Program-made: the position numbers and the translations under genes
Part shown: positions 57,512 to 62,167 of the stretch, one piece after another
Layout: every line of letters starts with the position of its first letter
Position numbering within the stretch: position 1 is the first letter of the stretch
Source of the DNA: Salinivirgaceae bacterium
GTDB lineage: Bacteria; Bacteroidota; Bacteroidia; Bacteroidales; SZUA-534
DNA: 64,000 nucleotides
NCBI GenBank assembly: GCA_017527435.1
Contig: JAFXQB010000010.1
Span: 1,941-65,940, forward strand
Reading direction: 5' to 3'
Notes under the pieces: model-generated
Database searches by the model: none
What the model was told of the DNA's origin: nothing
Seen by the model: only the letters and a program-made list of their open reading frames with translations

Positions 57512-57519
<8 letters not shown>

Positions 57520-60500
57520 TTTTTCTGCTATTTAGCTCGATAATGTTGCCCAATCGGTCGACTTTGAGTGGGACACAAATTTCTTTAATCATTTCTCCAG
57601 TAATGGCTCGCTCCGTCTTATTCAATGAAGAAAACTCAACTTTATCAACAATCGTTTTTGCGACTTTTTCATTAACGAAGAAACATTGGTATCCTGACGA
57701 AGACACCATTTTATATATTCGTTTCTTATCAACAACCTTTATCCCATCTTTCAACTCTTCATTTGTTGGAAGATAAACCAAATCATTTGGTGAAAGGATA
57801 AACAAAAGCGTGACATCATTAGAAATCAATTCATTATCTTTTAGATATGATTCCATATTTGACTGCCATTTTACGCCAAACTTTTTCTGGCAATCAATCA
57901 TTACGTTCAAAGGAATTGTCAAATAAGAACGAACCACTTTTGTTTCTCCTGTTTCTTTGTCCTCAACATTTGTTGCAAATACGGCAAAGAACAAATTTGT
58001 GCCTTTATCTGCCTCTACAAATTTGGCCATCTTACTTCCAGTCTGCCCAATGGGGAATTTATTTCCTTTTTCAAATCTGCGAACTTTATATATTGGATAA
58101 TGGAACTTCCCTTTGTTGAGTTCGACAATGTTTCTATTCATCTCATCTATACCATCAGCAGAAAATGCAAGTTCAGGATTATTGTTTTTTGCTTGTAAAT
58201 GTGCTTTTAGTATTTTCTGTATGCCCGTATCTGTTATTCCTTCAATCTTTTCTATAGCTTTACTATATTCCTTTATGCCAGACATATAGCCAACCAAATC
58301 GCTCAAGAAACGCGTAGCAAAATATCGGTCGTTTGTCTCTTTGGTGAAATAGTAAACATATATTTTCTTAACATCAATGTCCGACCATACATCCTTGTTG
58401 TCCTCCACATATTTTTTAATGTATTTGGCATCGCGTCCTGCTTTCAAAAGCTCTAATATTTTGGCTTTGAAATCCTTGTTTACTATCGCTTTTGGATTTT
58501 TCAATGCTTCGTTTAACGAAACCGTCTTTTTAAATCGCAAATTCACTTCACCAAATACAGTGTCTTTGTGCATTGATTTACGGATAGCCCAGCTATCACC
58601 CTTCTTTTGCTTTACAAAAACTTTCTTTCCATCACTATCATAATGCTGATATTGATTGGTTGTTTTGTTGATTACCCGCAAATTCTGTTTGAAGCTAACA
58701 ATAATATTTTCCAATTTTTCTTTTGCGTCAACCGTAAAATTATCCCACGGTTTCAAAAATTCTTTAGCCACTTCTATCTCTTTTCCGTCAATTAGTTTAG
58801 TTTCAAATCGGCGCAGTTTTCGCTGAAGTTGGTAGCGATTTGCATTGTGTTTTGAATGTGCGGCTTCGTTATTGAGTAGGTTAACGTGGTCGCGGGTGGC
58901 GCAAGCAATCACAATTGCATCCATAGCGTGGTGGCGGTGGTCAATACGTTTTTTATTGAAACCTCTTTGCAATTCAAGCGGCATAGCTGGTATTTCGTGT
59001 CCTTCTGCGCTTATTGCAGTGAAAACATTTTTGCCTGTCAGTTCATTCAATCTCTTGAATCGTGGTAAAACAATGCTGTTCCAAACATCGCCCATACCCC
59101 AATCCTTTTTCAAATGGTCGGTTATTGAGCCACTGCAAGAGATTAGATTTTTTGAAACTGCTTCTTGCTCGTATTCGCCATTAGGTAACTTCCAGCGAAC
59201 AATGTTTGATAACAATCCTTTTACAAGTTTGCTGATATAACGGCTATCGTTCAGTTGCCGTTCAATAAAACCATCGGGTATATCGTCCATCAACAACTTC
59301 TTCATCTTGGCTCGGTTGTTATTGTAGTGGTCTTTCACAAACTTCTCGTAAGCCTCAACCGACAGAATTTCAACCGTGTTTCCTTGACTAATTTGGACTT
59401 TTTCCCCTTTGTGATTCTTGATAAATTCAAATCCCAATTGTCTGTTTTTCAGTTTGTTTACTTCGGCTTCGCAAATCACTTTGTTGCTAAACGAATCATC
59501 AAAGTAGCGTGATTGTGGAATCACGTGCTCAATCTCATAAGCTGAAGTGAAAAGTTTTGCAAGCGGAATCATTTCTCCTGTGTAAGGCGAACGATATTTC
59601 TGCTCCAACCAAAGTTTATAGCGCACAATATCAGACTTCGAAGGTTGGGCTGTTTTTGATATTTTGCTGACAAAATCAAACTCTGGGTCTTCCTTTGTTA
59701 GATTGTCAAGTGCATTTTCCTCGTATATGCGCAATATATCCTGCTGACTTGGTGAATACGGACGAACGTTTTCAATACCCATTTCTGGATTCATAAACTC
59801 CAGAAGCATTGCCTTGATACGCAGGTTTGTATTCTCGTTTTGCAAAATGTTTTCAGTCATCCGTCTACGCTTGTCGGCGGGATTTTTCATTTCTCGACCA
59901 AGTTCGACGTGAATTTCGTCAATCTGACCTTCTTTTCTCCAAATATCTCGTACGGTGCGTAATGTTTCTGTAACAACTTGTTCCACAATCGGATTCCGTA
60001 ACGAATGTTGTTTGAATTCCTTTAGATAATTATCAATGTCTTCTGGCTTGTTCCATTTGTCAATCTCCTTTGCTTCCGAGTGGCGGTCGTAAACAATGTA
60101 GCAAGCCAACCAAATAGGCAAACCTTTGAAATGCGTTTCATCAGTCAAATTGATAGCCTTTTCACGAACACGATTTTTTATGCTCTCGTCATACTCTCCT
60201 GTGATAATTTTTTCGATTCGTTCTTTCGTTTTCGTGTCAATTGCGTCAATGCTCCAATATTTGCCAATTCGCATCAACGGAAGCAGTTTTTTGATTGCCT
60301 TTTCAGAATATGAGCCATAATCTTTGGCAAAAGGTTTGATTTTGGCAAACACTTCTGCAAATGACTCTGGCAAATGGTTCTTTTCGGCATACTTTTTCAG
60401 GGCCTTGCCAATCTCAATTTTATCCTCTACTGAATAAAGAATGTGCCAAAGCGCCATTTCCTGTTCTTTGGTCAGGAAGTCAGCACTAACACCGCATTTC

Positions 60501-62167
60501 GTCAGTCCATTTAATATTGTTGTTCGTGTTTCATTACAAGGGTATTCTTTGTCCTCGACATAGTTCCAGCGATACGGATACTGGTCTTTGCCTTTTTCTT
60601 TTTTGAATTTGAAATACGAATTGAGCAACGTGTCCTGTTTGATAGAAGCCCTGTCGTTAAGCCAATCGAAAAGAGCCACATAGTCATCTTCATTTTTCAG
60701 TAATTCAGCAGTAACATCGACATCCGTTTGAAGTTTTCCTGCAGATACATTTCCAAACAAATCTAATTGCCCATCGCTGATAGTTCGTTCTCTCTGATAA
60801 ATTTTCAGATTTTGCAAGAATTGCCACAACCTAAACTCTTGAAACAAAGGATTTGATTTGGCAACACACTTTACTGGGTGTTCATTCCCGTCTTTGTCAA
60901 AATGCGATTCATAAGGACAATCACTTATCAAAGACTTTTTACTCTTCAACGGACGCTGATAGAACAATATGTCGTTGATAAATAGATTGGTGAAGTTGGG
61001 ATTTGCAATATTATTACGGTGTGCTTCATTGTTCGGATATAGTTCATCCACACAAGCCTTATATAGTTTTTCATCTCGTAACTCTGGAATCAATGCTTTC
61101 TGCACTTCAAGAATCTGCATCAACTCGTCTTTGTAATATTTGCGTTCAACAGTCCGAACAAGTTTTCCAATAATTTTTTGATTCGGATTTTGAAGAAGCG
61201 CATCATAAATATAACAACCGACAGTCTTGTGACTATTCTTGAGATCTTCCTCTGTTTTCATCTTTATCAATTTCCACTCGCTATCCCATTCTGCTTCCGT
61301 AGGAATCTTGAAACGTCTACTTAATTGACCATCTTCGTATTTGTCATTTCCGTCCTTATTTATATCGACAGTAACAATTATATTTTTTTCTAACCCAATC
61401 CAATTGGGAATATCCCTTTTGAAAATTTTTCCAACATCACCATTTTGAAGTACAACATTCAAAACCTTTAACCCTTTATACAATTGCCCTGTATCAACAA
61501 TATCAACAACAGTCTGTTTGTCAAAATATTGTCTCGTCTTTGGCGTAACATTTTCTTCTTCATCTTCTCCACGAAGCTGATAATAACCGCGTTTTTGATT
61601 GAATTGCAACAAAATCCACGCAAGTTCTTCCTTTTTCAATCGCCAACTTAATGCTTTTTTACGCAAATAATAAATAGTCCAGTCATAAGGCACTTTTTTA
61701 TTATTGGCAACAAGTTGTGGTTGATTTTTGGCAAAATCAGCAAGCATCTCATTGAATGAATCTTTGAAAATGAATTCATAATTACCATCAATACCTTTAG
61801 TCCAAGCCAATTTCGGTTCTCCATTGCCAACAAACTTGCCATATTCATCTATTTGGTTTGCAAAGTGTTCTGGCAGAAAATTCATAAGTTTCAGCACACG
61901 TAACAAACGCTCCCGACGCAGAAGATTACGCTCTAACAACCGACGCACGCCGCGAAAGCCTGTGCGGGTTGCCGTTTGTGAGACAGAATTTCCCTTTTCG
62001 AACTCGCCCAAAATGTCTGCCGACATCGGGATAATACGGCTACCAGCCGCACTGATTCCTGTCGGCTTTAAATATGTTGTTTCATTTTCGCGTTTTTCTT
62101 CGTTCGCATTCACCACCGCCCAACCAATACTGTTAGTGCCCAAATCGAGACCTAATATTTTCTTCAT
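57512..62167 (-). CDS. cas9: CRISPR-associated endonuclease Cas9, large Bacteroidota type II-C form
   Basis: 1551 aa. RuvC-I GLDLGTNSIGWAV (Asp8). Arg-rich bridge helix RTGFRGVRRLLERNLLRRERLL. RuvC-II IHVELGREM (Glu755). HNH YEIEHVIPQS...SNKV (His881). RuvC-III DHRHHAMDAIV (His1080/Asp1083). No csn2 or cas4 in the locus. Confidence 0.97.

Follow-up and report, generated by a model that had tools for sequence, protein, structure and literature searches.

A stretch of 64,000 nucleotides (nt) from a Salinivirgaceae bacterium (contig JAFXQB010000010.1, positions 1,941 to 65,940; here called the window) carries a cas9 gene for a protein of 1551 amino acids (aa). Judged from its sequence and from structure models, this Cas9 very probably serves as the effector of a type II-C system that is complete, stand-alone and apparently functional and that belongs to a Bacteroidota clade of large Cas9s, with CbCas9 as structural reference. 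CbCas9 is the type II-C Cas9 of a Chryseobacterium sp. (1442 aa; Protein Data Bank (PDB) entries 8iyq, 8wmh, 8wmm, 8wmn and 8wr4), and its structures were reportedly described by Zhang et al. in Nature in 2024. The window Cas9 is assigned to this clade because its homology to CbCas9 extends over nearly the full length, both by sequence and by predicted fold, and within the clade it is an intact, ordinary, uncharacterised member.

In a phmmer search of PDB sequences, CbCas9 was the best match (E = 0, 1455 bits), with residues 2-1215 of the query aligned to residues 3-1175 of CbCas9 and residues 1305-1545 aligned to residues 1194-1429. AlphaFold models were made for residues 1-790 and 955-1551, with input alignments including diverse relatives of CbCas9; as these models are multi-domain fragments, the domain boundaries given here are approximate. 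CbCas9 came first in Foldseek searches of the PDB with both models (N-terminal model, 8iyq_A, E 8.6e-62, 772 columns, 52% identity; C-terminal model, E 5e-35, 43% identity), and was followed by the Nme, Geo, Hpa, Thermo, St1, Sa and Sp Cas9s. The predicted local distance difference test score (pLDDT) was 75.6 on average for the N-terminal model and mainly >90 from residue 1204 on in the C-terminal one. TM-scores from Foldseek were low, since isolated fragments do not give a reliable geometry between domains. The two proteins have in common the domain order, a beta-rich insertion in the recognition (REC) lobe, the HNH motif Y-E-I-E-H and a homologous C-terminal region. The window Cas9 is 109 aa longer, mainly due to an insert of ~65 aa at residues 1217-1281, and to a lesser degree at residues ~460-480 and 24-32.

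The first-pass annotation of this DNA had described a Cas9 of 1551 aa with an intact catalytic core, and this was confirmed, with D8, E755, H881, H1080 and D1083 lying exactly where it had placed them. The TIGR01865 model (cas_Csn1, the NCBIfam equivalog of Cas9) scored 389 bits (cut-off 100), and a protein with 100% identity is already deposited at NCBI, from a Salinivirgaceae metagenome-assembled genome, as "type II CRISPR RNA-guided endonuclease Cas9". D8 lies inside LGLDLGTNSIGW and is kept in 120 of 121 sequences, E755 lies inside IHVELGRE and is invariant among close homologues, and H1080 and D1083 both lie inside DHRHHAMDAIV. H881 is part of the HNH motif YEIEHVIPQS, and is, together with the downstream N904, invariant in close homologues; the HNH domain as a whole aligns with the HNH domains of many solved Cas9s. 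A search at E 1e-20 returned more than 7,600 homologues, and in the best 120 of them all catalytic residues are invariant, except in one entry without an N-terminus. It had also been remarked that the HNH motif reads E-I-E-H rather than D-x-D-H. The motif is indeed present, but it is no oddity and represents the norm of the clade: Y-E-I-E-H is invariant in close homologues, it occurs in CbCas9 too (there in the form of the dead H-to-A mutant), and among clade representatives x-E-H is the majority HNH form and x-D-H the minority.

The size of the protein was the other point raised by the first-pass annotation, which took the enlarged REC and C-terminal parts as regions of unknown function, possibly with extra domains. 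That these parts exceed those of compact II-C enzymes holds true. By alignment offsets against NmeCas9, the part before HNH is longer by ~294 residues and the part after residue 1026 by ~156, and against a II-C Cas9 of 1154 aa (21dz) the REC lobe was ~200 aa larger and the C-terminal part ~75 aa larger. The extra mass consists of ~200-300 aa in REC, including the beta-rich insertion, and of ~75-155 aa in the C-terminal part, including the ~65-aa insert. The segment from bridge helix to RuvC-II, proposed as about 650 aa, measured ~643 aa; the REC lobe of SpyCas9 has ~620-660 aa, so that of the window Cas9 is similar and not larger. The proposed 468 aa of WED/PAM-interacting (PI) sequence, where PAM is the protospacer adjacent motif, is correct as the length after D1083, but the WED/PI-equivalent part is ~385 aa because the RuvC_III domain extends to about residue 1166.

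The reading of these parts as something new did not hold, since CbCas9 has the same architecture and the size is normal for the clade. The best 120 homologues, 75-100% identical to the window Cas9, have 1526-1636 aa apart from one partial entry of 1383 aa, and full-length representatives after 50% clustering (n = 51) range from 1342 to 1769 aa. The extra mass relative to the Nme and Cje Cas9s is thus a clade-wide trait and no new kind of domain. In the REC lobe, the beta-rich insertion is hypervariable, with the lowest conservation among close homologues (0.36-0.49), and CbCas9 residues 189-274 align at this place. The CbCas9 paper reportedly calls this element "beta-REC2".

For the C-terminal part, the first-pass annotation had recognised no similarity to the SpyCas9 and NmeCas9 PI domains, which is borne out at the sequence level. 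When a family profile was searched against the PDB, CbCas9 was the only solved Cas9 with similarity in the C-terminal region. A sequence link of this region to the PI domains of NmeCas9 and GeoCas9 was considered and rejected, since the profile matched those proteins only in HNH and RuvC. The missing similarity is nevertheless no sign of novelty, because the solved CbCas9 has a homologous region and because a search with the C-terminal 468 aa in a library of 1.84 billion proteins gave matches to 535 representative clusters, of which 173 reached E <= 1e-30.

Structure prediction and Foldseek comparison had been put forward as the way to refute novel insertions; taken with the sequence alignment, they placed nearly all segments onto CbCas9, and the exception is the ~65-aa insert. 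It is the sole segment that CbCas9 leaves uncovered, and it has no counterpart among solved structures. Between the anchors MHKDTV (residue 1199) and ITDTGIQ (residue 1311) the window Cas9 has 106 aa, compared with 34-35 aa in CbCas9-like sequences, and the hairpin tip VPKGK of CbCas9 is replaced in the model by three helices and a strand with pLDDT of 91-98. The long form was found in 63 of the 109 sequences of alignment A1, and, among the 59 representatives with both anchors identifiable, in 46. The segment is mildly basic (15 K/R versus 11 D/E), and it may plausibly touch the guide RNA or the DNA backbone.

From these results one might suppose that novel domains in the enlarged REC and C-terminal regions confer a function or a PAM readout unlike that of any characterised Cas9. 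The restriction of C-terminal sequence similarity to CbCas9 among solved Cas9s would agree with this, as would an insert modelled at pLDDT >90 that no solved structure contains, and with identity of ~43% to CbCas9 in the C-terminal region the PAM may differ. However, all other segments align to CbCas9, the insert, a small addition to the tip of a hairpin, has no recognisable activity and is the majority state of the family, and PAM divergence among related Cas9s is routine (PMC10309648). We thus regard novel domains of this kind as improbable, and an ordinary clade member in a complete II-C system as the better explanation.

Completeness of the system follows from the locus itself (Table 1). 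It meets the definition of subtype II-C, as cas9, cas1 (NMENI-type) and cas2 are the only cas genes and the open reading frame (ORF) map has neither csn2 nor cas4 at the locus. A trans-activating CRISPR RNA (tracrRNA) is predicted directly upstream of cas9 on the + strand, divergent from it. One bulged base apart, its anti-repeat is complementary to the first 27 nt of the repeat (positions 1-27 from the 5' end), and a fusion of repeat, loop and tracrRNA gave a predicted fold of -45.4 kcal/mol with z of -8.35. At 62223-62230, TATATTTG fits the Bacteroides -7 promoter box (consensus TAnnTTTG), and presumably it serves as a promoter. An Rfam scan of the window returned two tRNAs only and no family for the tracrRNA. 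The array repeat reads GTTGTGAATTGCTTTCAAAATTGTAATTTTTCGGCGCGGGAACAGG on the + strand. CRISPR RNAs (crRNAs) would be read from this strand, since complementarity to the tracrRNA fixes the orientation, so that the array is convergent with the cas genes. The order tracrRNA-cas9-cas1-cas2 recurs in three other loci (L001, L005 and L006), in all of which the tracrRNA adjoining cas9 is conserved.

Following established Cas9 biology, the + strand of the array would be transcribed, the tracrRNA would form a duplex with the repeat-derived part of each crRNA, and this duplex would be bound by Cas9. The C-terminal region would then read a PAM 3' of the protospacer. HNH would cut the target strand through H881, with E880 and N904 as probable metal ligands, and RuvC (D8, E755, H1080 and D1083) would cut the non-target strand.

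Whether the system acts alone has to be weighed against what is known of CbCas9, an active nuclease with the PAM 5'-NNRAA (table in PMC12302564; PMC13153721). CbCas9 is boosted by the PIN-domain protein PcrIIC1, with which it forms a heterotetramer (PMC13153721, PMC12669027), and a conserved C-terminal helix (CTH) on Cas9 binds PcrIIC1 (PMC13153721). The window Cas9 could likewise need, or be boosted by, a factor of this type encoded elsewhere in the genome, and in addition to the precedent of its closest solved relative there are accessory genes in related loci, such as the RhuM-family gene of L005. Unlike PcrIIC1-associated systems, the window locus is without a PIN-domain PcrIIC1 gene: in the ORF map there is no gene between the tracrRNA and the array beyond cas9, cas1 and cas2, and none next to them apart from an adjoining ORF of 299 aa, which has no Pfam match and falls outside the block shared with L001. 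Moreover, near the C-terminus the CbCas9 cassette YDAKTKIGE is replaced in the window Cas9 by DKVEFSSLNK, and the CbCas9 type is absent from all 120 close homologues; that this cassette is the PcrIIC1-binding helix of CbCas9 is our guess. Dependence on such a factor is therefore very improbable in our estimate, and the stand-alone II-C system is retained.

As separate observations on these features, the two alternative tail cassettes are distributed as follows: among 120 relatives of CbCas9, 21 have a YDAKSKIGE-like form (CbCas9 type), and among the 120 close homologues 88 have a DKVEFSSLNK-like form (window type) and none has the CbCas9 type. The 299-aa ORF lies just past the tracrRNA (62513-63412, + strand) and has, by eye, a signal-peptide-like N-terminus. 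In L005, a gene for a RhuM-family protein of 351 aa (Virulence_RhuM; 10668-11723) stands between cas9 and cas1. It is absent from the window and may be an accessory gene.

Some results weigh against a functional system of this clade. Global confidence of the two models was mediocre (predicted TM-scores, pTM, of 0.52 and 0.59). The ten concatenated spacers had no match in phage and plasmid collections, so that no PAM was inferable, and exact spacer scans of IMG/VR gave nothing. The only partial match was that of spacer 8 (55916-55945), of which 24 of 30 nt match positions 7507-7530 of a metagenome contig (L007). One metagenome scan and one genome scan with the spacers also returned nothing. The match of spacer 8 falls in the 5'-terminal part of a gene for type III pantothenate kinase (coaX) and is in frame with it. 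It was rejected as a true protospacer, as the PAM-proximal end differs; by its sequence, spacer 8 appears to come from a housekeeping gene on the chromosome of the host or of some relative.

The least probable reading of all, that the locus is a remnant, either decaying or put to a new use, for instance with a Cas9 kept for regulation instead of immunity, could draw on the missing phage and plasmid targets and on the spacer that resembles a chromosomal pantothenate kinase gene, but it is contradicted by catalytic residues that are intact and invariant, by intact cas1 and cas2, by 11 identical repeats and by a conserved tracrRNA, and spacers without matches are usual for uncultured environmental Bacteroidales. 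An apparently functional II-C system thus remains the preferred explanation for the locus.

Comparison of the related loci also bears on how this system evolved. L001, in another genomic context, is 94-100% identical to the window in nucleotide sequence over the block bounded by the tracrRNA terminator and the end of cas2, apart from three sharply bounded divergent cassettes within cas9 (Table 1). The third-codon-position GC content (GC3) is 37% in cas9, and GC is 34% in the tracrRNA region, compared with GC3 of 61-70% in cas1, cas2 and host genes (64-70% for cas1/cas2). The same contrast of composition between cas9/tracrRNA and cas1-cas2 was found in L001, L005 and L006. A recent swap of cas9 in this genome, as the cause of its low GC, was considered and rejected, since L001 shares the contrast while its cas1 and cas2 are 98% identical to those of the window; the discordance of cas9 and cas1 is older than such a swap and recurs across loci. 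Identity to the window proteins was 82% for Cas9, 75% for Cas1 and 73% for Cas2 in L005, and 81%, 60% and 58%, respectively, in L006. In its 5' half the repeat changes along with the tracrRNA (an A/T change in L006, for example, is compensated), and in its 3' half it varies by locus.

Because of the contrast in composition, and because Cas9 is conserved more than Cas1 and Cas2 across loci, the sequences suggest that cas9 and its tracrRNA have spread among Bacteroidales separately from cas1-cas2. Such movement would agree with the modular evolution known for CRISPR-Cas and with the replacement of cas9 reported for Flavobacterium psychrophilum (PMC10309648). A wider proposal would treat the insert at 1217-1281, the REC cassette and the C-terminal cassettes as exchangeable modules, in a cas9-tracrRNA unit moving independently of cas1-cas2. 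We consider this proposal tentative and rather doubtful; if it were true, recombination would shuffle modules and thereby change the PAM, evade anti-CRISPRs or alter the docking of accessory factors.

Table 1. Coordinates in the window of the locus components, the Cas9 domains and the segments of cas9 that diverge from L001 (nt, nucleotide)
Feature	Position	Strand	Details
CRISPR array	55339..56143	+	11 identical 46-nt repeats, 10 spacers of 29-30 nt
Terminator-like hairpin after cas2	56198..56225	-	
cas2	56252..56587	-	111 aa; TIGR01573; Pfam CRISPR_Cas2
cas1	56584..57519	-	311 aa; overlaps cas9 end by 8 nt; TIGR03639 cas1_NMENI, 308.7 bits; Pfam Cas_Cas1
cas9 ORF	57512..62167	-	1551 aa + stop; ATG start
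RuvC-I	61988..62167	-	residues ~1-60; catalytic D8; model strands 2-45
Arginine-rich bridge helix	61862..61975	-	residues ~65-102; Pfam Cas9-BH 68-102; model helix 65-95
REC lobe	59933..61861	-	residues ~103-745; mainly helical; from model and Foldseek to CbCas9
Beta-rich hypervariable REC insertion	61286..61567	-	residues ~201-294; model strands 211-230, 233-240, 245-250, 260-269, 284-287
RuvC-II	59768..59932	-	residues ~746-800; catalytic E755; model strand 751-756
HNH nuclease domain	59318..59665	-	residues ~835-950; Pfam HNH_4 861-912, E 9e-19
RuvC-III	58670..59284	-	residues 962-1166; H1080 and D1083; Pfam RuvC_III, E 3.7e-59
C-terminal WED/PAM-interacting-equivalent region	57515..58669	-	residues 1167-1551; aligns to CbCas9 up to its residue 1429
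~65-aa insert at beta-hairpin tip	58325..58519	-	residues ~1217-1281; three helices and one strand; absent from CbCas9
Divergent cassette, beta-rich REC insertion	61286-61565		residues ~201-294; 45-49% nt identity to L001
Divergent cassette, C-terminal region	57990-58435		residues ~1244-1392; 62-85% nt identity to L001
Divergent cassette, near C-terminus	57540-57689		residues ~1493-1542; 62% nt identity to L001
tracrRNA	62233..62315	+	anti-repeat 62233-62257, small hairpin, terminator 62290-62308 and T-run; 5' end approximate

Two further features of the window stand apart from the system. A tRNA-Ser(TGA) gene (55063-55150, + strand), followed by a terminator-like hairpin at 55170-55202, lies at a distance of ~190 nt from the array, on its cas-distal side. 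On the - strand, positions 32555-47569 hold a giant ORF of 5004 aa with a C-terminal sorting domain for type IX secretion (Por_Secre_tail), and its first 1200 aa gave no Pfam match.

The discovery value of the window Cas9 is limited, as the protein is already deposited as Cas9, its size is normal for its Bacteroidota clade, which is very populous, and a solved homologue structure, that of CbCas9, accounts for almost all the "extra" sequence. In practical terms the protein has modest value, as an uncharacterised orthologue whose PAM is possibly different. It does represent the majority "long" C-terminal form, which the CbCas9 structures do not show, and the mosaic cassettes together with the discordance of cas9 and cas1 provide a clear example of the known modular, recombination-driven evolution of type II systems.

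Among other known enzymes, the compact II-C Cas9s (Nme1/Nme2, Geo, Hpa, Thermo and Cje; 984-1154 aa) come from the same type of locus (cas9-cas1-cas2 without csn2 or cas4), with the array convergent with the cas genes, and the NmeCas9 repeat has 36 nt, compared with 46 nt in the window array. Their RuvC, bridge helix and HNH are homologous in sequence to those of the window Cas9, whereas their WED/PI regions have no detectable sequence similarity to it; in Foldseek, whole fragments matched them at E of 1e-12 (N-terminal model) and ~1e-5 (C-terminal model). SpyCas9 (type II-A, 1368 aa) has the same bilobed plan, with a Foldseek E of ~1e-10 for the N-terminal model and weak matches (E 0.1-0.3) for the C-terminal one. 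It differs in that its locus contains csn2 and its HNH motif is D-x-D-H, whereas the window has no csn2 and an E-x-E-H motif. Type II-C systems of Flavobacterium (Fp2Cas9 and FcCas9) interfere with plasmids, and Fp2Cas9 uses the PAM NNAAAG (PMC10309648). The C-termini of Flavobacterium Cas9s are variable, and cas9 was replaced by horizontal transfer in F. psychrophilum (PMC10309648); going by this published description, both features parallel the mosaic cassettes and the cas9/cas1 discordance of the window locus.

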